NCBI GenBank assembly: GCA_036396895.1
Contig: DASWKB010000008.1
Span: forward strand, 1,796-65,795
DNA from: a bacterium
GTDB lineage: Bacteria; Omnitrophota; Gorgyraeia; Aquiviventales; Aquiviventaceae
DNA: 64,000 bases
Direction of reading: 5' to 3'
A program made the translations under genes and the position numbers. The notes beneath the pieces were generated by a model, which saw nothing but the letters and a program-made list of their open reading frames with translations, had not been told where the DNA came from and ran no database searches. Shown piece after piece: positions 6,698 through 26,685 of the stretch (the first letter of the stretch is position 1; each line of letters opens with the position of its first letter).

Positions 6698-6786
6698 CAA
6701 TCCGGTGCCTTGCGCGCTGCTGACCCGCCCGTGCTGACTGGCGCATCCGTCGCCGGCTCGCCCCGTCCGTGCCATTGCGCAGACAT

Positions 6787-6815: not shown

Positions 6816-6836
6816 GCGCTTTCGGGGGTTATCGTG

Positions 6837-7150
6837 ACGACCAACAACAAGCAACCAGAGACCAGCAACCAGAGACGGGGGGAGAGGGGCGAGAGGCGGG
6901 GGGCGGGGGACATAATCGTGTACCGTCGTACTACGGCGTTCACTGGTCTGAAGCTGGAAGCAAGACGCTGGAAACTGGAATGATCAGGGGGACCTCCCCG
7001 CTTGTTCCATCCTCTAGCTTCCAGCTTCGAGCTTCAGACTTGTTTGGCAGGATGTCCCTTGTTGCTTGTCGCTTGTTGCTTGTCGCTTGTTGCTTGTCGC
7101 TTGTCGCTTGTTGCTGCGTGGACGGTGGACTGTGGACTATGGACTGCGGA
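6837..7150. repeat. Composite intergenic mosaic element, copy 2. CAACCAG-word and CTTGTYG-word outer arms enclose a G-tract and a GCTGGAA-word hairpin, followed by a GTGGAC array.
   Basis: 6837-6876 (acgaccaacaacaagcaaccagagaccagcaaccagagac) is complementary in word content to the 7-nt array at 7054-7115 (cttgttg cttgtcg ...). G-tract at 6877-6909. Hairpin arms at 6945-6982 and 7007-7040. It lies immediately 3-prime of pilT. Confidence 0.85.
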
Positions 7151-7156
7151 GTCCGG

Positions 7157-10054: not shown

Positions 10055-10161
10055 TCCGTGAGCTCCTTCCGCTATTCCAGTCTCCATCAACGCGTGCCTT
10101 GCTTAAGGAGCGTAGCGCGCCTTCCCGTTCGCGTCAAGCCCGCAGCAATGAAGGACCAGGA

Positions 10162-10290
10162 CGGGGCATGGGGCGTGCCAAGTGCGGAGTGTGGAATCTG
10201 TGCAAAATGCGGAATTGGGAATTCGGAATTTGGAATGTCAAACCGCAGGTGATTCCGCATTCCGCATTCCACATTCCGCATTTGGCACGG
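10162..10290. repeat. GGAATTS / ATTCCGC heptamer-word hairpin module
   Basis: ...gcaaaatgcggaattgggaattcggaatttggaatg ... gattccgcattccgcattccacattccgcatttggcac. Related to 18885-18968 and 20252-20335. Confidence 0.8.
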
Positions 10291-10316
10291 AGACTGATCA
10301 TAAGGTGGACTCCTCA

Positions 10317-11294: not shown

Positions 11295-12061
11295 CAGCCG
11301 CTGCGCGCGCGGCCGGACGGCGACGCCGTCCGGAGCACGAGGCCCGCCGCGATCAGCGCCGCGCTGATGCCCTGCTGGAGCGTGAGGCCGGCGAGCCAGA
11401 TACCCTGGTCGCCTCGGAGGAATTCCATGCCGAAGCGCAAGAGCCCGTACGCGATCAGATACGCGCTCCCCACCCGCCCCCGGCGGACCGGTTGCCCGTC
11501 ACGCTGGAGACGGCGCAACAGGACGTAGCAGCCCAGGAGCCCGGCCGCCTCGATGAGCTGCGTCGGCAGCACGGGAGCCGGATGCCCAGGAAACGTGACG
11601 CCGAACCACGCCTCCGTCGGACGCCCGTAGCAGCAGCCGTTCAGGAAGCAGCCGAGGCGGCCGATCGCATGCCCCAGCGCGACGAACGGGGCCAGCTGAT
11701 CGAACGCGGCGATCCAGGATCGCCCGCGCCGCATGAGCCAACCCCCGGCGGCCAACATGCCGCCCAGGAGACCGCCGTACCAGACAAGCCCGCCTTCCCA
11801 GATGGCGAAGATCCGCCACGGAGCGTCTCGAAACACCTCCCAATAGAGCGCCGCAAAGAACAGCCGGCCTCCCGCGATGCCGCCCAGTAGCGCGATTGAC
11901 ACCAGATCCAGCAGCGCCTCCGCAGGCACCTCGACGGACTCCCGCGGCCACGCGCGCGCGGTCCGCGCCGCCAGCCACGTCGACACGACGAAGGCCAGGA
12001 TCAGCATCACCCCGTACGTGTGGATCGTCACCGGCCCCATTCTCACCAGCACGGGAAACAT
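11294..12061 (-). CDS. lgt: Prolipoprotein diacylglyceryl transferase
   Basis: 255 aa. MFPVLVRMGPVTIHTYGVMLILAF..., GRLGCFLNGCCYGRPT and multiple TM helices. Confidence 0.9.
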   Translation of the reverse strand: MFPVLVRMGPVTIHTYGVMLILAFVVSTWLAARTARAWPRESVEVPAEALLDLVSIALLGGIAGGRLFFAALYWEVFRDAPWRIFAIWEGGLVWYGGLLGGMLAAGGWLMRRGRSWIAAFDQLAPFVALGHAIGRLGCFLNGCCYGRPTEAWFGVTFPGHPAPVLPTQLIEAAGLLGCYVLLRRLQRDGQPVRRGRVGSAYLIAYGLLRFGMEFLRGDQGIWLAGLTLQQGISAALIAAGLVLRTASPSGRARSG

Positions 12062-12074
12062 CGCTCGCTCCTCA

Positions 12075-12600
12075 TGTCAAATGCGGAATGCGGAATTCGG
12101 AATTGGCCTTGTCCGGCCACGAAACGTGACGCTGGTGCATTGATGCATCATGGCAGCGCCTTGATCGTTGTCGGTCGCCATTGCCGTCTCGTCCATGTGT
12201 TCCGTCTGTCCGTCATCATTGGGGCATGGGCCACGGGGCACGGGGCGTGGGCCGTGTCGTGCGATCGTTGAACTGGTAGAAGGTGGAAGATGGAAGGTGG
12301 AAATGTTCCCTTGTACTTTCTACCTTCCATCTTCTACCTTCTATCTTCTATATGATGTGACGGTCATCCCCACGCCGTGCCCCGGAGCGAACGAAGTGAG
12401 CGGAGTCCTGAGCGAAGTCGAAGGACCCGCCCCGTTCCCCATGCCCCCCGTGCTGACGGAACAAACGGGCAGAACGGGCATGAACTTGTCACTTGTCACC
12501 TGTCACTTGTCACGCGTTTCTCTGGTCGCTGGTCTCTGGTCGCTGGTCGCTGGTCTCTGGTTGCTGGTTGCTGGTCGCCGGTCGCTGGCCGCTTGTCTGC
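12075..12600. repeat. Largest mosaic element in the window. Three-tier nested inverted repeat plus a conserved GAGCGAA core. Its last module overlaps the lspA 3-prime end.
   Basis: Tier 1: 12275-12303 pairs with 12317-12350 (GGTRGAA / CTTCYAT heptamers; 26 of 29 complementary). Tier 2: 12221-12254 pairs with 12369-12384 plus 12427-12448 (GGGGCAC words). Tier 3 is weaker: 12183-12214 with 12455-12485. A cttgtca array lies at 12488-12512 and a CTGGTYG array at 12515-12590. Confidence 0.85.
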
Positions 12601-13068
12601 GCGAAAGGAATGCCACAGCAGCAGCGCGACCCCGATCGTGATGGCCGAGTCTGCGATGTTGAACACGGGCCAAACGCGCAGGTCGATGAAATCGACGACG
12701 TAGCCGAAGCGGACCCGGTCGATCAAGTTGCCCGCGGCGCCTCCCAGGAGCAATCCCGACGCGGCCAGGACGGCCATCGGCTGCCGGCGCCGGCTGAGCA
12801 GCATCCAAGCGATCCAGAGCATCACCGTCGCCGAGAGCGCGATGAAGATGCCCAGCTGGCCGCGCAGCAGGCCGAACGCGGCCCCGGTGTTCTGGACGTA
12901 GGTGAGATGCAGGACGGAGGGAATCACCGGGAGGCTGTCCCCCGGCGCGAACCGGCCGAGGATCAACAGCTTGACGAGTTGGTCCGCGACGAGCACCGCA
13001 GCCCCGACCGCCCACGGCCACGCCAGCCGCGGAACCGCCGGCGCGGGAGGGTCCTCCTGAGCGGTCAT
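12496..13068 (-). CDS. lspA: Lipoprotein signal peptidase II with a repeat-encoded low-complexity C-terminal tail
   Basis: 190 aa with LTYVQNTGAAFG, GGAAGNLIDR and FNIADSAITIG. The tail ADKRPATGDQQPATRDQRPATRDQRPEKRVTSDR is encoded by the heptamer array at 12496-12600. Confidence 0.9.
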   Translation of the reverse strand: MTAQEDPPAPAVPRLAWPWAVGAAVLVADQLVKLLILGRFAPGDSLPVIPSVLHLTYVQNTGAAFGLLRGQLGIFIALSATVMLWIAWMLLSRRRQPMAVLAASGLLLGGAAGNLIDRVRFGYVVDFIDLRVWPVFNIADSAITIGVALLLWHSFRADKRPATGDQQPATRDQRPATRDQRPEKRVTSDR

Positions 13069-13096: not shown

Positions 13097-13480
13097 TCAG
13101 GGCTTGCCCTTCTGCTCCTTGACCCGCTGGCACTCGATGCACATGAGCGCGTACGGCACGGCCTTCAGCCGGCTCATGGTGATCGCCTTGCCGCACGCCT
13201 GGCACACCCCGTAGCTCCCGTCATCGATCCGCTTGAGCGCGTCATCGATCTGGTAGAGCAGTTCGCGTTCGTTGGAGGCGACGTTCATCGACAGTTCCCG
13301 CTCGTGCGTGTCGGTCGCCATGTCCGCCATGTGCACCGTGTAGCCCGACAGGTCGCCTGAGGCGTCCCGCGGGGTCTTCAGGGCGTCCTGGGCCAGCGAG
13401 CGCAGCTCGCCGACAATCCGCTCGCGCTCCGTAATGAGCAGTTGTTTGAAGTGCTTGAGCTGGTCCTTCGTAATCGCCAT
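13097..13480 (-). CDS. DksA/TraR-family C4 zinc-finger protein
   Basis: Start at MAITKDQLKHFKQLL (ATG at 13480). Zinc finger CQACGKAITMSRLKAVPYALMCIECQ. The 300-aa track ORF is an artefactual extension into ileS. Confidence 0.8.
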   Translation of the reverse strand: MAITKDQLKHFKQLLITERERIVGELRSLAQDALKTPRDASGDLSGYTVHMADMATDTHERELSMNVASNERELLYQIDDALKRIDDGSYGVCQACGKAITMSRLKAVPYALMCIECQRVKEQKGKP

Positions 13481-13494
13481 GAGTCCGTCGTTGG

Positions 13495-16332
13495 TTACTC
13501 GGTTGCGTGAGTGCCTGGCAGCGTCGGCATGCCCGCCACGGCCTGGACGCACCGCGCGCACAGCTGCGGATGGTCCGCATGCGCTCCGACGCTGTCCAGG
13601 TGCTTCCAGCACCGCCCGCACTTGGCGCCCGGCGCGCGGCTGATCCGGATGCCGGCCAATCCCGGCACGCCGGTCTCGTCCGCGTCCTGCGGCCCCGCGG
13701 CGGCCACGGCGACCTCCGACACCACGAACGCCTCCGCGAGCGTGTCGCGATGCGCGTGCAGGTCCCGCAGGAGCTCCGGGTCGCGCGCGCTGAGCGTCAC
13801 GCGGGCCTCCAGCGGGCTGCCGATCACCCGCTTGAGCCGTTCGGCTTCGAGCGCCTTCATCACGGCGCCGCGCACCGCGAAGAACGTGTCCCAGCGCGCG
13901 GCCGCCGCCGCATCCAGCGCCCCGCCCTCCGGAGCCGTCCAGGCGCCGAGCCCGGCGAAGGGTTCGCTCACCCACTGCGCCTCGCGCATGAACTGCCACA
14001 CCTCATCCGTCGTCACGACGAGGACGGGCGCCAGGGTCGCCACAAGCGCGCGCAGTATAGCATAGAGCGCGGTTTGCGCACAGCGCCGTTTCGCCGAGTC
14101 CGCAGGCTCCGTGTACAGGCGGTCCTTCAGGGCGTCCAGGTAGCACGACGAGAGGTCCTGTACGCAGAACCGGTAGACGGCCCGAATCGCGTCGTGAAAC
14201 TGGTACGCCTCGTAGGCGCGCGTCACGTCCTCGCACAGGGCAGCGGTCCGGTGGAGAGCCCACCGGTCCAGCTCGCCGAGCTGCCGCGCCGGCACCGCCG
14301 CGCGGGGATGAAAATCGAACAGGTTCGCCAGCAAATACCGGAACGTGTTGCGGATCTTCCGGTACGATTCGGCTGTCTGCTCGAGAATCTCGTCCGAAAT
14401 CCGCACGTCTTCGCGGTAATCCGACGAGGCGACCCACAGCCGCAGGATGTCGGCGCCGTAGCGTGCCGTCACCTCCTGCGGCGCGATGACATTGCCCAGG
14501 CTCTTGGACATCTTGCGCCCGTCTCCATCCACGACAAACCCGTGCGTGAGCACCTGACGGTACGGCGGCGCGCCCTTGAGCGCCGCGGCCGTGATCAGCG
14601 AGACTTGGAACCACCCCCGGTGCTGATCCGACCCTTCAAGATACAGATCCGCCGGCCAGCGCAGGCCCGGCCACGTCTCAGGCCGCAGCACCGCGGCATG
14701 GCTGACCCCGGAATCGAACCACACGTCCAGGATATCCGGATCCTTCCTGAGCTCCCTTCCGCCGCAGTCCGGGCACGCCAGCCCCGGCGCGAGCTGCGCG
14801 GGCGTCTCGGTGAACCAGGCCTCGAGGCCGCGCTCGGCGAGCGCGGCCTCGATCCGCTCGATGGCCGCGACGTCGAGCAGCGGGCGTTCGCAGGCGGCGC
14901 AGTGCAGCACCGGAATCGGGCTGCCCCAGTACCGCTGCCGGGACAGGCACCAGTCGGGACGGGACTGCAGCATGCCCGCGATGCGTCCGAGCCCCGCGTC
15001 CGGCACCCAGCGCACGCCGCGGACGGCCTCGAGCAGCATCGCGCGGAACGGGTCGGTCACGCGCAGAAACCACTGCGGCGTCGCGCGGAAAATGACCGGC
15101 TGTTTGCACCGCCAGCAGTGGGGATAGGAGTGCTCCAGGGGCTCCTCCCGTAGCAGGAGGCCCCGGGCCGTCAGATCCCGGATGATGTCGGGCGTCGCGT
15201 CCCATACCGTCCGGCCCGCCCACGCCGGCACCTCCTGCGTGAACCGCCCGCGCTCGTCCACCGGCGAGAGCACCTCGAGCCCCGCCGAGCGGCCGATGAG
15301 GAAGTCTTCATGCCCGTGTCCGGGCGCGATGTGGACCACGCCCGTGCCCTCGGTCAGCGAGACCCCGGCATCGAACACGGCGCGCGACCCGCGCGCCGCC
15401 AGCGGCGCCCGGCAGACCATGCCGTCCAGGGCGCGCCCGTCGAACTCGGCGACCCGCGCGGCGCCGGGCGCCCCGAGCTTGGCCAGGAACGCCTCGGCGA
15501 CGTCGGAGGCGACCACCAGCTGGCTCGTCCAGCGCGCGTCCGTGAACACCGCATACCGGGCGTCCGGATGGAAGCACAGCGCCACGTTCGCCGGCAGCGT
15601 CCAGGGCGTCGTCGTCCAGGCCACCACCGCCGTCGGGCGGCCGAACGCGTCCCGCGCGTCTGCCGGCAGTCCCGCCGGCGCGCGCTCGACCGGGAACGCC
15701 ACGTAGATCGACGCGTCGCGGCGGTCCTCGTACTCGACCTCCGCCTCCGCCAGCGCGGTTTCGCACGTCGCGCACCAGTACACCGGCTTCATGTCGCGCA
15801 CGATGTATCCCCTGCGCACGAGCTCCTTGAACGACCGGAGCACCGTCATCCCGTACTCGGCCGACATCGTGAGGTACGGGCGCGCCCAGTCCCCGACCAC
15901 GCCAAGCCGCTTGAACTGCTCCCGCTGGATGCCGACGTATCGCTCCGCGTACGCGCGCGCGAGGCCGCGGAACTCATGCTGGGCGATGTCGCGCTTGGTG
16001 AGCTTCCGCTCCTTGAAGAGCTGGTGCTCGATCGGCATCCCATGGCAGTCCCAGCCCGGCACATACGGCGCGTCGTAGCCCCGGAGCACCTTGTAGCGCA
16101 CGATGACGTCCTTGAGGATCTTATTCAGGGCGTGCCCGATATGGATATCCCCGTTGGCGTACGGCGGGCCGTCATGCAGCACGAACGTCTCGGCGCCGGC
16201 GCGCGCGCGGCGCATCAGTCCGTACAGGTCCTCGGAGTCCCATCGGGCCAGGAACGCCGGCTCGCGCTCCGGAAGATTGGCCTTCATCGGAAACGTCGTC
16301 TTCGGAAGATTCAACGTGGTTTTATAGTCCAT
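13495..16332 (-). CDS. ileS: Isoleucyl-tRNA synthetase
   Basis: 945 aa with the HIGH motif (PYANGDIHIGH), KMSKS, and a C-terminal zinc-binding CxxC pair. Confidence 0.95.
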   Translation of the reverse strand: MDYKTTLNLPKTTFPMKANLPEREPAFLARWDSEDLYGLMRRARAGAETFVLHDGPPYANGDIHIGHALNKILKDVIVRYKVLRGYDAPYVPGWDCHGMPIEHQLFKERKLTKRDIAQHEFRGLARAYAERYVGIQREQFKRLGVVGDWARPYLTMSAEYGMTVLRSFKELVRRGYIVRDMKPVYWCATCETALAEAEVEYEDRRDASIYVAFPVERAPAGLPADARDAFGRPTAVVAWTTTPWTLPANVALCFHPDARYAVFTDARWTSQLVVASDVAEAFLAKLGAPGAARVAEFDGRALDGMVCRAPLAARGSRAVFDAGVSLTEGTGVVHIAPGHGHEDFLIGRSAGLEVLSPVDERGRFTQEVPAWAGRTVWDATPDIIRDLTARGLLLREEPLEHSYPHCWRCKQPVIFRATPQWFLRVTDPFRAMLLEAVRGVRWVPDAGLGRIAGMLQSRPDWCLSRQRYWGSPIPVLHCAACERPLLDVAAIERIEAALAERGLEAWFTETPAQLAPGLACPDCGGRELRKDPDILDVWFDSGVSHAAVLRPETWPGLRWPADLYLEGSDQHRGWFQVSLITAAALKGAPPYRQVLTHGFVVDGDGRKMSKSLGNVIAPQEVTARYGADILRLWVASSDYREDVRISDEILEQTAESYRKIRNTFRYLLANLFDFHPRAAVPARQLGELDRWALHRTAALCEDVTRAYEAYQFHDAIRAVYRFCVQDLSSCYLDALKDRLYTEPADSAKRRCAQTALYAILRALVATLAPVLVVTTDEVWQFMREAQWVSEPFAGLGAWTAPEGGALDAAAAARWDTFFAVRGAVMKALEAERLKRVIGSPLEARVTLSARDPELLRDLHAHRDTLAEAFVVSEVAVAAAGPQDADETGVPGLAGIRISRAPGAKCGRCWKHLDSVGAHADHPQLCARCVQAVAGMPTLPGTHATE

Positions 16333-16450
16333 GACAATTATGCGGCTGAGACCGGCGAGCGATCATGCCGGCGCGGGAGAGCAGACGTGCATGTGTGCAT
16401 TCGTGCAGAGCTTCGATTGTTGATGCCACTGCATCCCCGAGAAGCCGAAA

Positions 16451-16545
16451 GTGGAAGCTGGATGTCGTCGTGGTGTATCGGCGTTGCCATGTTACTTGTT
16501 GCTTCTTGCTGGTTGCTTGTTGCTGGTCGCTAGCCCTTTGTCGCT
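16451..16545. repeat. Short mosaic element (GCTGGAW word plus a CTTGTTG/CTGGTTG array) just 3-prime of yggT
   Basis: gtggaagctggatg at 16451-16464. gttacttgttgcttcttgctggttgcttgttgctggtcgctag at 16491-16533. Confidence 0.7.
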
Positions 16546-16846
16546 AGCCAAGGCGATGCGACAGGTCGTAGAGGGACGCCACGAGGAACAGCCGGAGAAA
16601 CCAGATGCCCAGGAGCGCCGCCAGCGGCGAAAGATCCAGCATGCCCACGACCGTAAACGGCAGCGTGCGGCGGATCCAGGCGAACACCGGCTCGGTCACC
16701 GCCCGCAGGAATTGCACGACCGGGTTGTACGGATCCGGACTGACCCATGAAATCATCACCGAGACGAAGATGACGAAACTGTAGATCCACAGGACCCGGT
16801 CGATGATGACCGCAGTCGCCTGCAAGAGATTGCCGAGCACGAACAT
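16544..16846 (-). CDS. yggT: YggT-family membrane protein
   Basis: 100 aa reading ...ISWVSPDPYNPVVQFLRAVTEPVFAWIRR.., the typical YggT motif. Confidence 0.8.
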   Translation of the reverse strand: MFVLGNLLQATAVIIDRVLWIYSFVIFVSVMISWVSPDPYNPVVQFLRAVTEPVFAWIRRTLPFTVVGMLDLSPLAALLGIWFLRLFLVASLYDLSHRLG

Positions 16847-16879: not shown

Positions 16880-17722
16880 CTACCGCGCGGCGCGCGACAA
16901 GGCCCGCGAGCGCGCCGCCGCCGCCCGCACGGCACCGACGATGGCGGCATGCGCGCGGCGGGCCGCCAGCACCTTGAGCGCCGCCTCGGTCGTGCCCCGT
17001 TTGGACGCGACGGTGGCGATCCACTCGTCAGGGTCCCGCCCGCCCCGTTCAAGCAGCGCCAGCGCGCCGCGCAGCGTCGCGGTAACCGCGCGGGCCGCGA
17101 GCGGCGCCGGCAGCCCGAGAGATACCGCCGCCTCCCTCCACGCGCGCACGAGGTACAACACGTACGCGGGCCCGGACCCGCTGACGGCCGTGACCGCGTC
17201 GAAGTGCGACTCCGGCAGCTCGACGACCTCGCCCACCGTGGCGAAGATCGCCGCCACCGCGCGCCGGTGGCGCGCGGTGCACCGACGGCCGAACGCGAGC
17301 GCGGCGAATCCGGCTCCCGCCGTCGCCGGCAAGTTCGGCATGACCCGCGCCACGGGCATGCCGGGCAGCCGGGATTCGAGCCACCCGAGCCGGATGCCCG
17401 CCGCGATCGAGATGACGAGCGTCCGGCGATCCATCGCGCCCGCGAGATCCCTCAGCGCGCCGGCAAGCTGCTGGGGCTTGACCGCCAGCACCAGCACCCG
17501 GCACTGGCGCGCCACCGCGCGGTTGTCCCGCGTGACGGATGCGCCCGAGCGCCTGAGCGCGCGGCGCGCCGCGGCCGAGGGATCCGCGACCCAGAGCCGG
17601 CCCGCCGGCATGCCCGCCGCCCGCAGGCCCACCGCCAGGGCGCGGCCCATGGTTCCGCCTCCGATCACGCCGACGCTCGTCGTCCTGAGCTGCGCCGGCA
17701 CGGACGCGCGAGGCGCCGTCAT
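16880..17722 (-). CDS. proC: Pyrroline-5-carboxylate reductase
   Basis: Start at MTAPRASVPAQLRTTSVGVIGGGTMGRAL (ATG at 17722; ATGA overlap with the yggS stop). Also contains LAVKPQQ and SGSGPAYV. The C-terminus reads KRGTTEAAL. Confidence 0.85.
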   Translation of the reverse strand: MTAPRASVPAQLRTTSVGVIGGGTMGRALAVGLRAAGMPAGRLWVADPSAAARRALRRSGASVTRDNRAVARQCRVLVLAVKPQQLAGALRDLAGAMDRRTLVISIAAGIRLGWLESRLPGMPVARVMPNLPATAGAGFAALAFGRRCTARHRRAVAAIFATVGEVVELPESHFDAVTAVSGSGPAYVLYLVRAWREAAVSLGLPAPLAARAVTATLRGALALLERGGRDPDEWIATVASKRGTTEAALKVLAARRAHAAIVGAVRAAAARSRALSRAAR

Positions 17723-18432
17723 GCTCCGAGCGCCGTCCGCGCGCCGAATATCGCCGTCCCGATCCTCACGATGTCCGCTCCCTCTTCCACGGCCACGTCG
17801 AAATCCTCGGACATCCCCATCGACAGCGCAAGCGACGTCGCCGGCCATCCGAGCCCGGCGGCGATCTCGTCGCGAAGCTCCCGCATCCGGCGAAAGACAG
17901 GACGCGCCGACTCGGGATCGTCCGACCAGGGCGCGATGGCCATCAACCCGGCCAGGCGAAGGTGCGCGGAACCCGCCGCCCGGCTGGCGAGCGGCTCCGC
18001 CAACTGAGGCGCGCAGCCGTGCTTCGCGGGCTCGCCCGCCACGTTCACTTGGATGAAGACGTCAAGCGTGCCCGCCTGAGGCGCGGCAGCGCGGTGCGCC
18101 TCGAGCGCGTCGATAAGCTCCCCGGAGTCCGCCGAGTGCACCGCATCGAACAGGACCGCCGCGAGCTTGGCTTTGTTGCGCTGCAGATGCCCGATCAGAT
18201 GCCAGCGGCCGCGCCGGCCTTCGCCCCGGCCGAGGAGCTCGAGCTTGCTCCTGGCCTCTTGGACCCGGCTTTCGCCGAACGCGTCCAGGCCCAGCGCCGC
18301 GGCCGCCCGGATCCGCTCAAGCGGCACGCCCTTCGTGACGGCCAGCAGGGTGACGGACGCCGGATCGCGGCCCGCCCGGCGGCAGGCTTCGCCGACGCGC
18401 CGGCGAACTTCGGCCACGTTGGACGCCAGCAT
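17719..18432 (-). CDS. yggS: YggS-family pyridoxal-phosphate homeostasis protein
   Basis: Start at MLASNVAEVRRRVGEACRRAGRDPASVTLLAVTKGVP. Also contains HLIGHLQRNK and MGMSEDF. Confidence 0.85.
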   Translation of the reverse strand: MLASNVAEVRRRVGEACRRAGRDPASVTLLAVTKGVPLERIRAAAALGLDAFGESRVQEARSKLELLGRGEGRRGRWHLIGHLQRNKAKLAAVLFDAVHSADSGELIDALEAHRAAAPQAGTLDVFIQVNVAGEPAKHGCAPQLAEPLASRAAGSAHLRLAGLMAIAPWSDDPESARPVFRRMRELRDEIAAGLGWPATSLALSMGMSEDFDVAVEEGADIVRIGTAIFGARTALGA

Positions 18433-18439
18433 GCGGAGT

Positions 18440-18445
18440 ATTTTA
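18440..18445 (-). promoter_or_regulatory. TAAAAT -10-like hexamer 7 nt upstream of the yggS ATG; possible leaderless transcript
   Basis: Minus strand reads gcTAAAATactccgcATG. Confidence 0.25.
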
Positions 18446-18447
18446 GC

Positions 18448-19008
18448 ATACGGATTACACGGATTCAGATTGGATTGCACGGATTCAAAGAGGATGACAC
18501 AGATTGACGATTCAATCCGTATAATCCGTTGTGAATCCGTATAATCCGGCAGTGAAAAACCCGGGACTGTCCCGGGTTTTAATTGGGGACTGTCCCGGGT
18601 TTCCCCGGGTTTTCCAGCTCAAACGCGGGGACAGCCCCGAGGACCACATTCGCGTACCGTGCACCGGAACGCAATTCGCAGTGTCGCGTAACGCGCAACG
18701 CGTAACGTGGGTCTCAAGCGTGATACATGCGGGCCAGTTCCCGAGGTGCCATCCCGCCGGAAGCGGGGTGGCTCCGAGGGGGCTGGGCCGCTCGAAATGA
18801 GGTCAAAGCTGGTCGGAAGCTGGAAGCTGAACGTCGAAGGGGCATGGGGCGCGGGGCGAGGGGCGGGGGAACTGGGGAGCTATGGCAAAATTCGGAATTC
18901 AGAATTGGGAATTCGGAATCGGACGCTCGTCATTCCGCATTTCGAACTCCGCATTCCGAATTTGGCACAGTTGCTGGTCCCTTGTTGCTGGTAGCTTGTC
19001 GCTTGTTG
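18448..19008. repeat. Repeat-only spacer between ftsA and yggS. Order: ACGGATT hairpin, CCCGGGAC palindromes, ACGCGTW words, GCTGGAA words, G-tract, GGAATTC hairpin, CTTGTTG array.
   Basis: Modules at 18448-18550, 18555-18615, 18672-18710, 18808-18838, 18839-18878, 18885-18968 and 18968-19008. No credible ORF is present. Confidence 0.85.
18555..18615. terminator. Tandem A-tract / CCCGGGAC-N-GTCCCGGG / T-tract palindromes; candidate bidirectional intrinsic terminators downstream of ftsA
   Basis: gaaaaacccgggactgtcccgggtttt at 18555-18580, with a degenerate second copy at 18585-18615. The same element occurs at 62038-62103. Confidence 0.55.
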
Positions 19009-20148
19009 CTAGAAATACTCAACGAGGACGGCTTTGGCGCGCTCGAGCACGCGGCCGAGCGGGCCGCCCGGCGAAGCCAAGGCCGCTCCGGCGCGCGGGC
19101 GCGAGGCGAGCTCGAGGAGTCCGATGGCCGGGCAGAGCGCGAGTTGCCGGGAGAGGTCGGCGGAGCGGTGCGTGCGCGGGCTCCGGCAGAGCGCCGTCGG
19201 GATTCCGAGCGTGCGCTCCACCCATTCGACGAAGCCGTCCATCAGCGCCGCGCGTCCGGCCACCAGCACGAGGTCGGGCTTGGGTTCGCCTCCGAGCACG
19301 GTCCTGATCCCCTCTTCCAAGCGAGCCCAGGCCGCGTCCAAATGGGCCCGGACGCGCTCTTCACGGCTGGCGGTGCCTTCCCGGATTGAGGCGGTGGCCT
19401 GCTCGAGCGTCACGTCAAGCTCCCGGGCGAGATCCCGCGCCAGGCTCACGCCGCCCCACGGCTCGACCCGGCAGGCGGTCAGCACCCCTGCCTCGAACAC
19501 CGCGAGATCGATCGAGAGCCCTCCGAGATCGATGACGAGCACTCGCCCACCCGCGGACCGTTCGTCCGCCGCCCCGGCCAACGCGGCCGCCGGAGCGTAC
19601 CGAACGTCCAATGCTTCCAGCCCGACCGATTCCACCGCTTCCAGGAGCGTCCGGCGCACGGCCACCGGCATCGTCACCAGAAGGAAGTCCCCCTGGAGGC
19701 GCGTCGCGCAAAGCCCTCGGGGATCGCCGACACGCGCGAACCCGTTGCCGGCGTAGCCCAGACATTCCATATGCAGCACGTCCCGGTCAATCGCCAGCGA
19801 CTGGTTGAGGGCCGCAGTCCGCAACCGCGCGACGTCCCGCGCCTTGACCGCCACGGGCTCGTCAGCGATCGGCACCGCCGCCCGCACCCGTTCGCTCTGG
19901 AGCGCCGGGTGGGACAGGCAGACGAGCGCGCGGGTCAGTTCCGCGGTGACGCCGGTCGCGTCGATCGCCGCTTCGATCGCGCGCGCCACGACAAGCGGAT
20001 CCGGCACGCCCGAGTCGTTCGGCGCCGGATACGGCTCGACGCCGCTGCCGAGCAGTTCCCAGCCCGGCGTGCGCTCGTGGCTGAGGCCGATGGCGCAGGC
20101 GACCTTGGTCCATCCGATGTCCAACGCCACCACCGGCTTCGCCGTCAT
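19009..20148 (-). CDS. ftsA: Cell division protein FtsA (actin-like ATPase)
   Basis: 379 aa with VVALDIGWTKVACAIG, VLVIDLGGLSIDLAVF and an amphipathic C-terminus (RVLERAKAVLVEYF). Confidence 0.85.
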   Translation of the reverse strand: MTAKPVVALDIGWTKVACAIGLSHERTPGWELLGSGVEPYPAPNDSGVPDPLVVARAIEAAIDATGVTAELTRALVCLSHPALQSERVRAAVPIADEPVAVKARDVARLRTAALNQSLAIDRDVLHMECLGYAGNGFARVGDPRGLCATRLQGDFLLVTMPVAVRRTLLEAVESVGLEALDVRYAPAAALAGAADERSAGGRVLVIDLGGLSIDLAVFEAGVLTACRVEPWGGVSLARDLARELDVTLEQATASIREGTASREERVRAHLDAAWARLEEGIRTVLGGEPKPDLVLVAGRAALMDGFVEWVERTLGIPTALCRSPRTHRSADLSRQLALCPAIGLLELASRPRAGAALASPGGPLGRVLERAKAVLVEYF

Positions 20149-20180
20149 CCCGCATTCTCGTGCGTGCTCATCCCACTTCC

Positions 20181-20418
20181 GTCAACATTGGGCATGGGAC
20201 ACGTTATGGTACGGAGCACGGGGCGAGGGGCGGGGTAACTGGGGAGCGATTGCAAAATTCGGAATTCGGAATTGGGAATTCGGAATCGGACGCTCGTCAT
20301 TCCGCATTCCGAACTCCGCATTCCGAATTTGGCACAGTTGCTGGTCTCTGGTTGCTTGTCGCTTGTCGCTTGTTGCTTGTCGCTTGTTGCTCGTTGCTTG
20401 TCGCTCGTTGCTTGTTGC
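20181..20418. repeat. Mosaic element between ftsQ and ftsA (G-tract, GGAATTC hairpin, long CTTGTYG array)
   Basis: 20219-20346 matches 18852-18979 with 5 mismatches over 128 nt, in direct orientation. Confidence 0.9.
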
Positions 20419-20450
20419 GATCGTCTTGAAAATGTTTCGAAGCCCATGTG

Positions 20451-21245
20451 CTATGTGCGGGGCGCCACAACCGGATCGTCGAATCGCAGATCGATGTACC
20501 GGACCGCCAGGTCCCGACGCCCGATGGCCGCCATCGTGTCCCGCAGGCGGCGCAGGTTCACCGCCAGCTCCGCTTCGGACCCGCAGCGGATTTCGGTGCT
20601 GTCATCGATCAGAAACCGCAGCTGCCGGGGGTTGGAGACGTCCAGCTCGCTGAGCCGGCGGTCCGCCAGCGCCGGCGCACGGCGCAGCTGCTCCAGCACC
20701 CGCAGCGCCAGCTGCAGCCGCTCATCCGCGTTGCGGCGTCCGACGTGCAGCGCCGCGCCCAGGCGTCCGACGCCGTGCACCCGCGGCAATCCCTCGTCGG
20801 CCTCCGTCCCCTCGGGCAGGATGAAGCCTTCCGCATCGACCGGAAGCCAGCCGTTCACCCGCACGAACGCCACCGGTTCCCGCTCGATGACGTCGATGCG
20901 AATCCGGTCGGGCAGGTCCCGAATCACCCGCACGTGCTTGAGCGTGGGCCGCTGGCGCTCAAGCGCCCGGGCGAGCTGACCGATGTCCACCTGCCAGATA
21001 TTGCTGCCCATGAGCGAAGGATCAATCGTCAGCCCCGAGCCCGGCGGCATCGTCACGCGCGTCACCCGGAACGCCTCCGCGCGGTTCGTATGGTCCCACA
21101 ACAGCCAGACGGCGGCCGCCGTCAGGGCGCAGCCGGCCGCCAGCGACGGGTGCTGCCAGAGCCACCGCACGCCGCCCCAGAGCCATCCGCCGAACCGCGG
21201 GATCACGCCCACGACGGACCGCCGCCGTATCCGTCTGCTGGCCAT
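20451..21245 (-). CDS. ftsQ: Cell division protein FtsQ (POTRA domain)
   Basis: Start at MASRRIRRRSVVGV (ATG at 21245, overlapping the ddl stop as TGATG). One TM helix, then FRVTRVTM... and VRVIRDLPDRIRIDVIEREPVAFV. Confidence 0.75.
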   Translation of the reverse strand: MASRRIRRRSVVGVIPRFGGWLWGGVRWLWQHPSLAAGCALTAAAVWLLWDHTNRAEAFRVTRVTMPPGSGLTIDPSLMGSNIWQVDIGQLARALERQRPTLKHVRVIRDLPDRIRIDVIEREPVAFVRVNGWLPVDAEGFILPEGTEADEGLPRVHGVGRLGAALHVGRRNADERLQLALRVLEQLRRAPALADRRLSELDVSNPRQLRFLIDDSTEIRCGSEAELAVNLRRLRDTMAAIGRRDLAVRYIDLRFDDPVVAPRT

Positions 21246-22219
21246 CAGCGCCCGCCTTCGCCTGCCGCCGCGGCCGCCGCCGGCAGCCAGGCCAGCTGCA
21301 CCAGCGTCTCGCAGAGGGCGCCGTAAGACAGCCCCACGCAGGCCGCCGCTTTCGGCAGCAGGCTCGTCGGAGTGAATCCGGGAATCGTGTTCACCTCGAG
21401 GACCACGGGCGTGCCGTCCTCGCGCAGGATGAGATCGGTCCTCGAGAAGTGCCGCGCCCCGATCGCGCGGTGCGCCAGCCAACCGGCGTCCTGCACCCGC
21501 CGGGCGGACGCCTCATCCAGCGCCGCCGGCACCTCGTACCGGGTCTCGCCCGCGGTGTACTTCGCGTCGAAATCAAAGAAGGCATGACGCGGGACCACGC
21601 CCACGACCGGCAACACGCGCTCGCCCACCACGCCGACGGTCAGCTCCCGGCCGCGGACATACTCCTCGATGAGCACCGGCGCGCCGAACGCGGCCGCCGC
21701 CTCCACGGCCCGCGCCCACTCCTCGGGACGCTCCACCAGCGACACGCCGAGGCTCGAGCCTTGATTCGACGGCTTGACGACCGCCGGCAGTTCCCCTTCG
21801 CGCGGCCACCCGGCCGTTTCGGCCGCGCCCGGCGCCAGCACGCGGCAGCGCGGCACCGCCAACCCCGCCGCGGTAAACGCGGCGCGCGAGGCGATCTTGT
21901 CCATCCCCAGCCGGCTGGCCGCCACCTCGGAGCCCGTGTAGGCGATGTGCAACTCCTCGCAGACCTCCTGAATGGTGCCGTCCTCGCCGAAGGGCCCGTG
22001 CAGCGCAATGAACGTGACGTCGGGGCGGCGCTGCGTCATGTGGCGCCGGACGGCGTCCGCCGCGTCGGCGGCCGTGCCGTGCCGCGGCAGTTCAAGCGTT
22101 TCAACGTCCCAGCCGAGCTCCGCGAGCGCCAGCGCGACCCCCCGTCCGCTCTTCAGGGAGATGCCGTGCTCGCCCGACGGCCCGCCCATGAGGACGGCGA
22201 CGGAGCCGTGCGCGCTCAT
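21245..22219 (-). CDS. ddl: D-alanine--D-alanine ligase
   Basis: 324 aa with VAVLMGGPSGEHGISLKSG, FIALHGPFGEDGTIQ and EVNTIPGFT. Confidence 0.9.
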   Translation of the reverse strand: MSAHGSVAVLMGGPSGEHGISLKSGRGVALALAELGWDVETLELPRHGTAADAADAVRRHMTQRRPDVTFIALHGPFGEDGTIQEVCEELHIAYTGSEVAASRLGMDKIASRAAFTAAGLAVPRCRVLAPGAAETAGWPREGELPAVVKPSNQGSSLGVSLVERPEEWARAVEAAAAFGAPVLIEEYVRGRELTVGVVGERVLPVVGVVPRHAFFDFDAKYTAGETRYEVPAALDEASARRVQDAGWLAHRAIGARHFSRTDLILREDGTPVVLEVNTIPGFTPTSLLPKAAACVGLSYGALCETLVQLAWLPAAAAAAGEGGR

Positions 22220-23145
22220 CGCAGGGCTTCCGCCTCGGCCGCCGGCTGCGGCAGCCGCCAGGACTCGCCGAGGATCCGGATCTCCGGGAGCAGCTCGACG
22301 CCGAAGCTCATCCGCACGGACCGCTGCGCGTGCTCCATGAGCGCGAGCACGTCCGCGCAGGTGGCCGCGCCCACGTTGACGATGAAGTTCGCGTGCCGCT
22401 CGGAAATCCGCGCATCGCCGATCCGGGCGCCTTTGAGCCCCGCGGCGTCCAGCAGCCGGCCGGCCGGCGAGCCCGCCTCCGGCGGATTGCGGAACGCGCA
22501 GCCGGCCGACGGCAGCCGCAGCTCCTGCGTGAGGTTCCGCCGCTTGAGCACGGCATCGATGCGCGCGGCGGCCTCATCCGCGGACACCCGGGGGAACTCC
22601 AGCAGCACGTCGGTGATGATGCCCGTTGGGAGCGGCGTATACCGGTATCGGAACTCGAGGCGCTCCCGCGGCAGGCGGTGCAGCGTGCCGTCGAAGCCGA
22701 CGAGCCGCACCTCGCGGACGAACCGGCCGATCCCCTGGGCGTTCATCGCCACCGCCCCGCCCACCTGACCGGGCAGCCCCGCCAGCGTCTCCACCCCGCC
22801 CCAGCCGCGCACGGCCGCCAGCGTCACCACCCGCTGGGTGAGCAGCGCCGCGCCGCAGAGCACCTGCGCCTCGGGCGCCCCCGGCCGCGCGAGCTCCTCC
22901 ACCCGGCGGAACCCCAGCCCCAGCTTTACGACGAGCCCGCGGACGCCGCGGTCGGCGGCGAGCGTGTTGGTCCCGCCCCCCAGCACCGACACCGGCAGCT
23001 GCAGGCGCGCCGCGCCGCGCAGCGCATCCATCAGCTCCTGCGGATGCTGCGGCTCCGCGAACCATTCCGCCGGTCCGCCGATGCGGAAGCTGGTGTGGTT
23101 GGCGAGCGGTTCGTTACGACGGACGCACGTCGGCGGCCAGGTCAT
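22216..23145 (-). CDS. murB: UDP-N-acetylenolpyruvoylglucosamine reductase
   Basis: LANHTSFRIGGPAEWF, GGGTN and SERHANFIVN are present. I prefer the start at the Met of MTWPPTCVRRNEPL; the track start at 23217 would overlap murC by about 100 nt. Confidence 0.85.
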   Translation of the reverse strand: MTWPPTCVRRNEPLANHTSFRIGGPAEWFAEPQHPQELMDALRGAARLQLPVSVLGGGTNTLAADRGVRGLVVKLGLGFRRVEELARPGAPEAQVLCGAALLTQRVVTLAAVRGWGGVETLAGLPGQVGGAVAMNAQGIGRFVREVRLVGFDGTLHRLPRERLEFRYRYTPLPTGIITDVLLEFPRVSADEAAARIDAVLKRRNLTQELRLPSAGCAFRNPPEAGSPAGRLLDAAGLKGARIGDARISERHANFIVNVGAATCADVLALMEHAQRSVRMSFGVELLPEIRILGESWRLPQPAAEAEALR

Positions 23146-24478
23146 GGCAGAGCTCTCCGATATCGCCGGCTCCAAGCACGTAGATCGTGTCCCCCGATGA
23201 CATGACCCGCCGGACATAGGTCGTCAGATCGGGCTTGGGCACGTAGTGCACCCAGGGATGCCCCTGGGCGCGGATCAGCGCGGCGAGCCGCTCGCCGCTC
23301 ACCCCGGGAATCGGGGATTCGAACGCCGGGTAGATGTCCGTCACGATGACGCCGTCCGCCCGGTCGAAACAGCGCGTGAATTCCTGCTCCAGACTCTGCG
23401 TGCGGGAATAGCGGTGCGGCTGGAAGACGACCAGCCGGTGCCTCCCGTCGAGCGCGCCGGAGGCCAGCGTGGCGCGGATTTCCGACGGGTGATGCGCGTA
23501 ATCCTCCACGAGCACGATGTCGCCGGGCAGGCGCGTCGCCTGGAAGCGCCGCTGGGTGCCCTGGTAGCGTCCGAGGGCGTCCCGGACGGTCACCATCGGG
23601 ATCTCAAGCGTGAGGGCCATGCTCATGACGCCCAGCGCGTTCGCGATGTTGTGCGCGCCCGGCACCTGAAGCTGGAAGCCTCCCAGATCCCGGCCCCGGT
23701 AGCGCGCGCGGAACCGGCTGCCGTGCCCGACGAAGCGGATGCGCTCCGCGGTCACGTCCGACGCGCTCGAGAGGCCGTAGGTCAGCCGATGGAGGCCGGC
23801 GAACGCCGTGCGGATCACCGGATCGTCCCAAGAGACGATCAGGGCGCCCTGGGGATCGAGCTGTCCCGCGAAGGTCTGGAACGCCACGATGAGCCGGTCG
23901 AACGTCTGGTAGTAATTCAGATGCTCGCGGTCGATGTTCGTGATGATCGCGACGTGCGGCGACAGTTCCAGGAACGAGCCGTCCGACTCGTCCGTTTCGG
24001 CCACCAGATACCGCCCCTGTCCCGCGTGCGCGTTCGTGCCCAGCGAGCGCATGACGCCCCCGACGACGACCGTCGGATCCCAGCCCGCTTCCAGGCAGAT
24101 CTGGGCGGCCATGCCGGATGTCGTGGTCTTGCCGTGGGCGCCCGCGACGGCGATCAGCCGCCGGTCGCGCGAGAGCTCCGCGAGCAGCCGCCCGCGGCTC
24201 ACCGTCCGCACGCCCCGGGCGATGGCTTCGCACAGCTCCGGCGACTGGGTCGGCACCGCCGAGGTGTGGACGAGCAGGTCCACCGGCCCATCGAGATGAC
24301 GCGGGTGGTGCCCGCGCGCAACACTGACCCCCTTGCCCGCCAGCGCCTCGACCTGGGGGCCGCGCCCCGTGTCGCAGCCGGAGACTTCCAAGCCCCTCGC
24401 GCGGCAGATCTCGGCCAGGCCGCTCATCCCGATGCCGCCGATCCCCATGAAGTGCACGCGCGCGCCCGCCTCAAGCAT
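23114..24478 (-). CDS. murC: UDP-N-acetylmuramate--L-alanine ligase
   Basis: 454 aa with HFMGIGGIGMSGLAE, GAHGKTTT and DYAHHPSEI. Confidence 0.9.
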   Translation of the reverse strand: MLEAGARVHFMGIGGIGMSGLAEICRARGLEVSGCDTGRGPQVEALAGKGVSVARGHHPRHLDGPVDLLVHTSAVPTQSPELCEAIARGVRTVSRGRLLAELSRDRRLIAVAGAHGKTTTSGMAAQICLEAGWDPTVVVGGVMRSLGTNAHAGQGRYLVAETDESDGSFLELSPHVAIITNIDREHLNYYQTFDRLIVAFQTFAGQLDPQGALIVSWDDPVIRTAFAGLHRLTYGLSSASDVTAERIRFVGHGSRFRARYRGRDLGGFQLQVPGAHNIANALGVMSMALTLEIPMVTVRDALGRYQGTQRRFQATRLPGDIVLVEDYAHHPSEIRATLASGALDGRHRLVVFQPHRYSRTQSLEQEFTRCFDRADGVIVTDIYPAFESPIPGVSGERLAALIRAQGHPWVHYVPKPDLTTYVRRVMSSGDTIYVLGAGDIGELCHDLAADVRPS

Positions 24479-25613
24479 GGACGATCACCGGGTCCGGTGC
24501 TCGGCGCGGCGGCGCCTGCAGGTCCGCGTCGGCTTCCCCGACGATGATCCGGGCCAGCCGCTCGGCCGCGTCGCTCCTGGCGAGCCCGCGCATCCGAGCC
24601 GCCATGCCCTCAAGGCGCAGCCGGTCCCGCGCCAGCGTCCGAATGAGATCCGCCAACCGCGCCGACACGTCCGGGGACTCCTCCAGCACGATGCCGCCGC
24701 CAGCGGCTTCGACCCACCGGGCGTTCGCCACCTGATGGGCGCCTGCGTGCGGATACGGGATCAGGATCGCCGGCGTGCCGGTCTGCGCGAGCTCCGCAAC
24801 GGTGGCCGCGCCCGCGCGCGCAATCGCCAGCGTCGCGCCCGCATACACGCTCGCCATGTCATCCCGAAACGGCTCGATCCGCCCGGCGACGCCCGCCTGC
24901 CTGTACGCGGCTTCCACGGCGCGGACGTCGTCCGTGCCCGTGAGATGCCGCAGCGTCCAGCGCGCCCGCTCCTCCTTCGAGAGCTCCGGCAGCATCCCGC
25001 AGACGATCCGGTTCACGGCCCGCGAGCCCTGGCTGCCTCCCAGCACGACGAGCGCGAACGTCTGGGCGGCCGGACGCGCGGCGGGATCCGGCGCGGGCCA
25101 GGCCCGCACCGGCATGCCCGTGACGACCGGCTCCACTCCGTGCGGCACGCCCTGCGTACCGGGAAACGACACCGCGACCACGTCGGCGCGGCCGGCGAGC
25201 CAGCGGTTCGCCCGGCCCATGACGACGTTCTGCTCATGGATGATCGTCCGCGCCCGGCCCCGGGCCGCAAGGATCACGGGCACACAGACGCCTCCGCCGA
25301 ATCCCACGACGGCCGCAGGCCGGTGCGCGCGGATCCAGCGCCGCGCCGACCCCCACAGCCGCGCGGCGGCCAGCCACCGGAGCGTCCCGGATCCCGAGGG
25401 AATCGCGACCGGCTCGCACGCGAGCCCGTCCGCCGACGCCCGCGCCACGAGGACGTCGGTCAGCGACGCGCTGCGCCCCCGGCGGGCGTACCACACCGTC
25501 ACCGGGACGCCCGAGGCCCGCACGAGCCGGGCGGCCTCGAGCGCCGGCACGAGGTGCCCGCCGCTGCCTTCAGTCACGAAGAGCACCGGAGATCCCCGTT
25601 CGCGCGCCGTCAT
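24471..25613 (-). CDS. murG: Undecaprenyldiphospho-muramoylpentapeptide beta-N-acetylglucosaminyltransferase
   Basis: 380 aa with GGSGGHLVPALE, VLGGSQGS and RAGAATVAELA. Confidence 0.9.
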   Translation of the reverse strand: MTARERGSPVLFVTEGSGGHLVPALEAARLVRASGVPVTVWYARRGRSASLTDVLVARASADGLACEPVAIPSGSGTLRWLAAARLWGSARRWIRAHRPAAVVGFGGGVCVPVILAARGRARTIIHEQNVVMGRANRWLAGRADVVAVSFPGTQGVPHGVEPVVTGMPVRAWPAPDPAARPAAQTFALVVLGGSQGSRAVNRIVCGMLPELSKEERARWTLRHLTGTDDVRAVEAAYRQAGVAGRIEPFRDDMASVYAGATLAIARAGAATVAELAQTGTPAILIPYPHAGAHQVANARWVEAAGGGIVLEESPDVSARLADLIRTLARDRLRLEGMAARMRGLARSDAAERLARIIVGEADADLQAPPRRAPDPVIVHA

Positions 25614-26685
25614 GACTCGCCTTGAAGATGAGCGCGCAGGCCACGAGATTCATCACCATGGAGGTCCCGCCGTACGAGATGAGCGGCAACGGCAGCCCCT
25701 TCGTCGGCAGCATGCCCGTCACGACGCCGATATTGACCATCGCTTCCAGGCCGATCATGGCGACCAGGCCGCAGGTCAGATATTTCCCGAACCGGTCCTC
25801 GATGAGCATCGCCATGCGGAACCCCAGGATGAGAAACAGCGCGAACGCCAGGAGGACCGCCGTCGTGCCCACCAAGCCCAGCTCCTCTCCGATGATCGCC
25901 AGGATGAAATCGGTATGCGCGCTCGGCAGGTAGAAGAGCTTCTGCACGGACCCGCCCACGCCCAATCCGATCAGCCCTCCGCTGGCGAGCGCGAAATACG
26001 ACTGCAGGATCTGATAGCCGCTGCCGTAGGGGTCGTTCCACGGATCCAGGAACGCGAAGATGCGCCGGCGCCGGTACTCCGCGCCCATGATCAACACGAC
26101 GAGCAGCGCCGCCGCGGCGCCCAAGAGGCCGAGCACGTGCTGCGGCTTGGCGTTGGCGACGATCAGGAGCAGCATCGCCACGGCGCCCATGACGGTGGCC
26201 GTGCCGAGATCCGGCTGCAGCAGCACGAGCCCCGCGCACAATCCCGTCACGGCCACCGCGGGGAGCACGCCCTTGCGGAATTCCCTGATGAACCCGGCCT
26301 TGCGCGCCAGGAGATCGGCCAGGTACACGACCAGCGCCAGCTGGGCGAACTCGGAGGGCTGCAGGCTGAGCCGGCCCAGCCTGAACCAGCGCCGGGCGCC
26401 TCCGATTTCCTGCCCGGCGACGAGCACCAGCACCAGGAGCGCCAGACTCAGCAGGATCGCCCACCGGCTGCCCGCGCGCAGCCGCGCATAGGGCACGGCC
26501 AGGCACGCGCCGGCCAGCGCGGCGCCGCAGCCGATCGCCACCAGGTGCTGCTTCACGAAATGGAAGCCGTCCCCGTACGCGAACTCCGCGGCGAGCGTGC
26601 TGGAGGAGTACACGGCGACGGTCCCGATCCCCAGCAGGAACAGGAGGACCAAGAGCAGCGACTGTCGCAGTTGTGTCGGCGTCAT
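25570..26685 (-). CDS. ftsW: SEDS-family cell division protein FtsW
   Basis: 371 aa, polytopic, with LQPSEFAQLALV, HTDFILAIIGEELG and LPLISYGGTS. Confidence 0.9.
   Translation of the reverse strand: MTPTQLRQSLLLVLLFLLGIGTVAVYSSSTLAAEFAYGDGFHFVKQHLVAIGCGAALAGACLAVPYARLRAGSRWAILLSLALLVLVLVAGQEIGGARRWFRLGRLSLQPSEFAQLALVVYLADLLARKAGFIREFRKGVLPAVAVTGLCAGLVLLQPDLGTATVMGAVAMLLLIVANAKPQHVLGLLGAAAALLVVLIMGAEYRRRRIFAFLDPWNDPYGSGYQILQSYFALASGGLIGLGVGGSVQKLFYLPSAHTDFILAIIGEELGLVGTTAVLLAFALFLILGFRMAMLIEDRFGKYLTCGLVAMIGLEAMVNIGVVTGMLPTKGLPLPLISYGGTSMVMNLVACALIFKASHDGARTGISGALRD

Follow-up and report, generated by a model that had tools for sequence, protein, structure and literature searches.

A 64,000-nucleotide stretch of contig DASWKB010000008.1 (assembly GCA_036396895.1), referred to below as the window, carries a division and cell wall (dcw) gene cluster from which ftsZ is missing, with the other core genes in order. 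The cluster ends in ftsQ-ftsA, and a gene-free spacer separates ftsA from yggS, the next gene. The same slot lacks ftsZ in a whole clade of related bacteria, and the absence is not a peculiarity of one genome. The FtsA protein retained throughout this clade is, as judged from alignments, one with a trimmed FtsZ-docking subdomain. The explanation that we favour, with a confidence only a little above even, is that ftsZ was lost from the genome in the ancestor of the clade and FtsA was repurposed, the rest of the dcw cluster being kept. Bacterial division without FtsZ is an open question, on which most work has concerned Planctomycetota and Chlamydiota.

The ftsA-yggS junction in the window and in related genomes

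Genes in the window were identified by Pfam and NCBIfam scans. These recovered the dcw genes from mraZ to ftsQ-ftsA, in agreement with a preliminary description of this DNA that had considered the cluster otherwise complete. The window was searched for ftsZ in two ways. Using tblastn, the FtsZ sequences of E. coli and B. subtilis gave a best E value of 2 against the 64-kb window. A profile hidden Markov model (HMM) of 56 FtsZ sequences, 54 of them taken from the fetched control loci, was run unfiltered and at maximum sensitivity against all stop-to-stop segments in six frames. It yielded no match in the window, with positive controls scoring above 500 bits. Neither tblastn nor the HMM revealed a tubulin/FtsZ GTPase domain or an FtsZ relic in any frame of the window.

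The spacer between ftsA and yggS contains only short open reading frames (ORFs). The preliminary description had seen no ORF of FtsZ character on either of its strands, and the negative tblastn and six-frame HMM results support this; the spacer boundaries given there are correct to the base when the ATG at 18432 is taken as the start of yggS. No Rfam family reached threshold in the spacer, and the matches found there, all far under threshold, were rejected as chance. In GenBank, the numbering from HEX9779791 (IleS) to HEX9779795 (FtsA) leaves room for three proteins, which fit yggT, proC and yggS, indicating that no gene is annotated in the spacer.

To place the window among its relatives, 31 related loci were compared: six metagenome contigs (L001-L006), 21 GTDB species representatives (L007-L027), a more distant genome with a short FtsA (L088), the most divergent subgroup of the FtsA family (L213), L214, and L215, which is GCA_001805725.1, the Rifle genome 'Omnitrophica WOR_2 bacterium RIFCSPHIGHO2_02_FULL_68_15'. 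Neither tblastn nor the FtsZ HMM detected FtsZ within ±10 kb of ftsA in any of them. Among loci with enough downstream sequence to be informative, ftsZ directly follows ftsA in none of the 27 family loci (the window included) versus all 51 canonical ftsA loci, which span many phyla and come from the same scan (Fisher p = 1.5e-21). These controls, together with three Patescibacteria loci (L028, L029 and L031) in which the order is ftsA-ftsZ-...-ileS, uphold the expectation of the preliminary description that synteny should place ftsZ at this position.

In 29 of the 31 related loci yggS stands directly after ftsA, at a distance of 46-963 bp that shrinks to just 46-58 bp in eight of them. The block proC-yggT-ileS-dksA-like-lspA-lgt follows ftsA-yggS across the clade (L001-L027, L088 and L213-L215). 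As the relatives share this ftsZ-less junction, the absence of ftsZ from it is ancient and clade-wide, and not a trait of the window genome alone.

Upstream, ftsA of this family follows ftsQ in the window and in nearly all family loci. An exception is L214 (10001-14000), where ftsA, preceded by a glycoside hydrolase gene, is split off from the dcw cluster but still directly precedes yggS-proC-yggT-ileS. Because of this order, the link between ftsA and yggS seems more stable than that between ftsQ and ftsA in at least one lineage. In L017 (10001-13500), ftsA is again not followed by ftsZ; a lipid A acyltransferase/LptC-/LptA-like fusion gene is found instead, and then genes for an ABC ATPase, trigger factor and ClpP.

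The conservation of the junction also bears on the possibility of an assembly or binning artefact, in which the repeat-rich spacer would have caused a collapse or a chimeric join and thereby the dropping of ftsZ. The spacer repeats are shared with other intergenic regions, and repeats of this kind can mislead short-read assemblers. However, the same ftsA-yggS junction is present in independent assemblies from many studies and samples, several of them with repeat-free gaps of 46-60 bp. Its conservation across these assemblies effectively refutes an artefact, which we regard as hardly credible.

The gene order downstream of ftsA recalls that of Firmicutes. In B. subtilis the order is ftsA, ftsZ, ..., ylmE, sepF, ylmG, ylmH, divIVA, ileS, ylyA, lspA and rluD. 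With this order the window shares the succession ftsA, yggS/ylmE, yggT/ylmG, ileS, dksA-like/ylyA, lspA and rluD. Unlike the B. subtilis arrangement, it lacks ftsZ, sepF and divIVA in their slots and has proC between yggS and yggT.

The related genomes have a G+C content of 54-71% and come mostly from groundwater. According to their NCBI titles, 15 of the 21 species representatives belong to Candidatus Omnitrophota and six to Planctomycetales; the shared FtsA family and synteny mark them as one coherent clade under conflicting names. In a search with IleS, all named matches were Omnitrophica/Omnitrophota, the clade itself showing 57-68% identity and the next shell 49-54%, and no planctomycete name occurred among the best 120 matches. 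L086, a genome of that next shell, has a yggS-proC-yggT-...-ileS block unlinked to a dcw cluster. Based on the IleS matches and record titles, the clade is probably affiliated with the Planctomycetota-Verrucomicrobiota-Chlamydiota (PVC) group and lies within or next to Omnitrophota, a placement that is provisional. The PVC neighbourhood proposed in the preliminary description is supported both by the named IleS relatives, which are Omnitrophica/Omnitrophota to 49% identity, and by the Planctomycetales label of some members.

Identity of FtsA and its FtsZ-docking region

The product of the last dcw gene in the window is identical to a GenBank entry from a 92.4-kb contig, which is named hypothetical protein. 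It exceeds the Pfam thresholds of both SHS2_FTSA and FtsA (PF02491, 41.1 bits with a cut-off of 25.4; PF14450, 35.9 bits with a cut-off of 31.8) and has approximately 60 relatives at 41-54% identity. An AlphaFold2 model based on the family alignment reached a predicted local distance difference test (pLDDT) score of 87.9. The top Foldseek matches of the model in the PDB were the FtsA structures 7q6f, 7q6i and 7q6d, with template modelling (TM) scores of 0.74-0.79, ahead of PilM and MreB. The protein has the actin-like fold with the inserted SHS2 (1C) domain. At its C-terminus, the motif NRLxDRTRTILTEYF is kept in 21 of 21 family sequences, and a helix is predicted at residues 363-378. This amphipathic helix resembles the membrane-targeting helix of FtsA, suggesting that the protein binds the membrane.

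The protein nevertheless stays under the equivalog cut-offs for FtsA, scoring 86.0 versus 175.85 bits for TIGR01174 and 67.4 versus 409 for NF007009, in alignments that cover the N-terminal 257 positions only. When 1.84 billion representatives were searched exhaustively with HMMER, 7336 FtsA-like clusters were returned. Among these, the family of the window protein comprises about 15 full-length clusters scoring at least 396 bits, followed by the L088 type at 203 bits, a few short FtsAs (~385-394 amino acids) at 155-169 bits and canonical FtsAs at 153 bits or less. A wider profile (A2) found no bridge to the FtsA-like proteins of Planctomycetota; it returned L088-type short FtsAs and then canonical FtsAs of Verrucomicrobiae, Hydrogenedentota and others. 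Taken at the level of sequence and predicted structure, the window protein is a genuine FtsA fold and belongs to a discrete, small family.

Alternatively, the gene after ftsQ could encode another actin-like ATPase, related to PilM, so that the cluster would be without both ftsA and ftsZ, as is typical of Planctomycetota. The low TIGR01174 score, the GenBank name, the second rank of PilM structures in the fold search and a weak match to PilM_2 (18.9 bits, under the cut-off of 27) are in line with this. They are outweighed, in our view, by the Pfam scores for SHS2_FTSA and FtsA, by FtsA being the best match among solved structures in both sequence and fold, and by the FtsA-like amphipathic helix at the C-terminus. 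Moreover, the gene occupies the position of ftsA after ftsQ in nearly all loci (L214 excepted), and its neighbours are ftsQ and yggS, with no adjacent pilN, pilO or pilP. We thus consider a PilM-like identity improbable. PilM-like and T2SS-L-like domains are encoded elsewhere in the window, by a different gene at 62627-64000.

The family was aligned with the FtsA of E. coli and with 13 further FtsAs of the canonical type, whose genes each precede an ftsZ. All family members, including L088, lack the equivalent of E. coli residues 271-294, that is 24 residues of subdomain 2B. Additionally, R300 and E303, invariant in 14 of 14 canonical FtsAs, are variable in the family. In 4A2A, the co-crystal of T. 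maritima FtsA with an FtsZ peptide, salt bridges are formed to the equivalents of these two residues. FtsZ binds FtsA through its C-terminal tail, whose docking region lies near FtsA residues 234-245 and 294-304 (PMC10769210). An intact docking site for this tail in 2B was not found in the family, in a part of the alignment that is itself uncertain.

Compared with canonical FtsA of E. coli and Thermotoga maritima (PDB 7Q6D and 4A2A), the clade protein shares the fold, the 1C (SHS2) domain, the C-terminal helix and the position after ftsQ. It differs from the canonical FtsA-FtsZ pair in that no ftsZ lies downstream and in having, in the window, ~40 residues fewer than its E. coli counterpart, as well as from canonical FtsA in the missing stretch of 2B, in the unconserved R300/E303 and in its score under the NCBIfam equivalog cut-off.

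Loss versus relocation of ftsZ

To account for these observations, we propose that ftsZ disappeared from between ftsA and yggS in the ancestor shared by this high-GC, mostly groundwater PVC clade, most likely through complete loss of the gene from the genome, with the dcw genes and ftsA being kept. FtsA would then have stopped tethering a Z-ring and may act as a membrane-bound, actin-like scaffold that arranges FtsQ, an FtsL-like protein and FtsW/FtsI for the synthesis of septal peptidoglycan.

A possible but less probable explanation is that ftsZ was merely relocated and that Z-ring division continues, the tether being an altered FtsA interface, SepF or a ZipA-like anchor. The adjacency of ftsA and ftsZ in all 51 informative control loci from many phyla implies that moving ftsZ alone is rare, and FtsZ was found in none of the 31 related loci within ±10 kb of ftsA. 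Furthermore, FtsA has a shortened docking region from which the invariant residues are gone, a change that one would not expect in a tether that is still used. The remodelling of this subdomain therefore shifts the balance toward loss.

On the other hand, several points favour relocation or weigh against the loss that we propose. To our knowledge, FtsZ is nearly universal in bacteria. The dcw genes, the membrane helix of FtsA and its 1C domain are all kept, and the latter two suit a normal divisome equally well. Gene order does shift within the clade, as illustrated by L017 and L214. The searches for FtsZ covered ~64 kb of the window genome and ±10 kb around ftsA in the relatives, and, these being metagenome-assembled genomes, incompleteness can keep a relocated gene hidden. 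HMMER and MAFFT place the long 2B helix differently, so that the alignment near the 2B deletion is uncertain, although neither of the two alignments yields an invariant R...E pair in the family. Finally, a related genome is reported to conserve the dcw genes: Ca. Velamenicoccus archaeovorus, the sole Omnitrophota genome of a 2025 PVC survey, falls in the dcw-conserving group, and the phylum is listed among the dcw-conserving ones on this basis (PMC12283558).

It is established that ftsZ has been lost from all Planctomycetota as well as from Chlamydiota, and ftsA is also gone in most of their species (PMC12673574; PMC12283558), although in planctomycetes not in all (PMC12673574). For Omnitrophota, a 2016 review, which did not decide the question, detected FtsZ in only one of the three 'Omnitrophica' genomes considered, and the main genomics paper on the phylum does not mention FtsZ. 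The clade described here resembles FtsZ-less PVC bacteria (Phycisphaerae, Brocadiia and Chlamydiota) in that ftsZ is missing, in our case from the loci searched, and mur genes, mraY, ftsW, ftsI and ftsQ are kept. In contrast to Planctomycetota and Chlamydiota, where ftsA is mostly lost and the dcw cluster fragmented, its dcw cluster is intact, its ftsA is kept but remodelled, and most of its members are labelled Omnitrophota. Provided that the absence holds genome-wide, an otherwise intact dcw cluster in which ftsA is remodelled and ftsZ missing represents a new form of the known FtsZ loss.

More tentatively than for the loss itself, we suggest that this free-living, peptidoglycan-making clade, placed with Omnitrophota, lost FtsZ independently of Planctomycetota and Chlamydiota and divides with an FtsA-based divisome without a Z-ring, an intermediate state undescribed so far. 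Such a divisome would resemble the MreB-organised division of Chlamydia (PMC7613929), the proposed principle being that a membrane-bound filament of the actin type, in place of a Z-ring, organises the synthases of septal peptidoglycan. Unlike in Chlamydia, the proposed scaffold is FtsA and not MreB.

If the loss of ftsZ is confirmed, the clade would represent a natural intermediate, with all other dcw genes in order and an FtsA with a trimmed docking subdomain. It would show which parts of the divisome work without a Z-ring, and would suggest that FtsA may be able to organise division by itself. The view would also have to be revised of Omnitrophota as a phylum with a full dcw cluster, which in the survey was based on one genome (PMC12283558). 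If ftsZ was only relocated, the clade would offer a rare break between ftsA and ftsZ and an unusual FtsA variant, which would be of modest interest.

Intergenic repeats and layout of the window

The window has a G+C content of ~70% and carries most of its genes on the minus strand. The dcw cluster, the spacer and the genes past it are listed in the table.

Features of the dcw cluster, the ftsA-yggS spacer and the downstream genes in the window
Feature	Position	Strand	Basis or remark
mraZ	36211-36648	-	Pfam/NCBIfam
rsmH	35232-36191	-	Pfam/NCBIfam
ftsL-sized ORF	34930-35232	-	between rsmH and ftsI
ftsI	33088-34863	-	Pfam/NCBIfam
murE	31592-33091	-	Pfam/NCBIfam
murF	30159-31631	-	Pfam/NCBIfam
mraY	29120-30118	-	Pfam/NCBIfam
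murD	27687-29273	-	Pfam/NCBIfam
extra coiled-coil ORF	26714-27595	-	between murD and ftsW
ftsW	25570-26685	-	Pfam/NCBIfam
murG	24471-25613	-	Pfam/NCBIfam
murC	23114-24478	-	Pfam/NCBIfam
murB	22216-23217	-	Pfam/NCBIfam
ddl	21245-22219	-	Pfam/NCBIfam
ftsQ	20451-21245	-	POTRA_1 and FtsQ_DivIB_C domains
ftsA, divergent, last dcw gene	19009-20148	-	379 amino acids; Pfam SHS2_FTSA and FtsA
gene-free spacer, ftsA to yggS	18433-19008		576 bp; 7-bp arrays and hairpins
composite module, AATTCGG array facing CATTCCG array	18857-18970		fold z = -4.0 to -4.75
G+C-rich palindrome, AAAACCCGGGAC[A/T]GTCCCGGGTTTT units	18553-18616	-	inverted repeats I4, I7 and I8
long hairpin, ACGGATT-type facing AATCCGT-type arrays	18445-18552		inverted repeats I1 and I2, 38-nt arms
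yggS (YlmE family), first gene past the spacer	17719-18432	-	TIGR00044
proC	16880-17848	-	Pfam/NCBIfam
yggT	16544-16846	-	Pfam/NCBIfam
ileS	13495-16332	-	Pfam/NCBIfam
dksA-like gene	13097-13492	-	Pfam/NCBIfam
lspA	12496-13068	-	Pfam/NCBIfam
lgt	11294-12061	-	Pfam/NCBIfam
rluD	10317-11294	-	Pfam/NCBIfam

The spacer is a mosaic of period-7 tandem arrays (units AATTCGG, CATTCCG, GCTTGTC, CGCGTAA, AGGGGCG and GGAAGCT) and long inverted repeats, in which three segments fold far more stably than shuffled controls (z = -3.5 to -7.5). For the long hairpin, z is -7.5 and -6.3 on the minus and plus strands, respectively. The composite module of ~110 bp has a near-identical, alignable copy at 20224-20340, between ftsQ and ftsA. 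In the preliminary description, the spacer had been presented as repeat-only. Its repeats and hairpins are real, but they are not specific to the missing gene, the same mosaic being found in most intergenic regions: of the window's 20 intergenic regions measuring 60 bp or more, 13 contain period-7 arrays, often with shared units, and other spacers are equally long (e.g., 629, 614 and 503 bp). With the same architecture and length found elsewhere, the spacer is uninformative on a recent gene deletion. It is ordinary intergenic filler of the window genome and no deletion scar.

Arrays are present in the spacers at 1052-1487, 6528-7156, 10091-10316, 12062-12495, 16333-16543, 18433-19008, 20149-20450, 40146-40282, 44899-45512, 53175-53524 and 57963-58465. 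A typical array measures ~31 nt, corresponding to 4.4 copies, and often opposes a complementary array to give a long hairpin. Units recur between spacers within the window genome and differ between species. Heptamer arrays were also observed in the relatives L007-L013, L015, L017, L020, L024, L026, L027 and L088, and constitute a clade-wide intergenic repeat family. They recall the heptamer STRR (short tandemly repeated repetitive) sequences of cyanobacteria. A search of metagenome contigs with a degenerate pattern of three CCAGMRA copies retrieved 120 unrelated loci, none of which has FtsZ or the other repeat words of the window.

On the minus strand, the G+C-rich palindrome folds with -48.9 kcal/mol (z = -3.5) and its hairpin is followed by a UUUUU tail, making it a plausible terminator of the dcw cluster. 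Its terminator-like status stems from folding alone, as a scan for consensus terminators did not call it. That scan made a single weak call in the spacer (minus strand, 18522-18497), with 3 G-C pairs and no better than shuffles. The dcw transcript probably ends at the terminator-like hairpin in the spacer, in which case yggS would be transcribed separately. The AAAACCCGGGAC[A/T]GTCCCGGGTTTT palindrome occurs in tandem copies at two distant sites, in the spacer and at 62039-62105, and resembles a dispersed, bidirectional, terminator-like element.

The assignment of yggS is based on a TIGR00044 score of 168.8 bits (cut-off 106.25). Starting from the ATG at 18432, its product has 237 amino acids, compared to 221-232 in most relatives. 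An extended -10-like motif, TGCTAAAAT, lies 7 bases upstream of this ATG (18433-18450, minus strand), and a Shine-Dalgarno sequence is not apparent. The yggS mRNA may thus be leaderless and start from a promoter of its own, although the consensus promoter scan did not call one there or anywhere else in the spacer. For ftsQ, the ATG at 21245 overlaps the stop codon of ddl and gives a protein of 264 amino acids, those of relatives having 262-268.

The extra ORF between murD and ftsW encodes a protein of ~293 amino acids with an N-terminal hydrophobic helix, a coiled coil and a C-terminal beta-rich domain, and its Pfam matches are weak coiled-coil ones only. Since murD and ftsW adjoin in all relatives in which the region is present, the ORF is an insertion specific to the window genome. 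As a candidate for a clade-wide FtsZ substitute it was rejected, being absent from all relatives.

Elsewhere in the window, two secretins carry a C-terminal TonB_C domain, an unusual combination (1488-3164 and 58466-60418, both on the minus strand). One is part of a pilus cluster of the Tad/Flp type, which also encodes RcpC/CpaB, a ParA/CpaE-like ATPase and three T2SSE ATPases; the other is found beside T2SS-C, T2SS-M/PilO and PilM/T2SS-L-like genes. A gene at 46283-47542 (plus strand) encodes a prepilin-type N-terminal methylation motif and holds a long GGA/GGC-rich tandem repeat (46796-46874). Its product is probably the prepilin-fusion protein of the preliminary description, and a gene for a tetratricopeptide repeat (TPR) protein is located just upstream (45513-46394). 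Lastly, the window contains a gene for a XerC/XerD-type tyrosine recombinase (40283-41083, minus strand) and two tRNA genes (Rfam RF00005) at 45265-45339 and 6623-6697, both on the minus strand.

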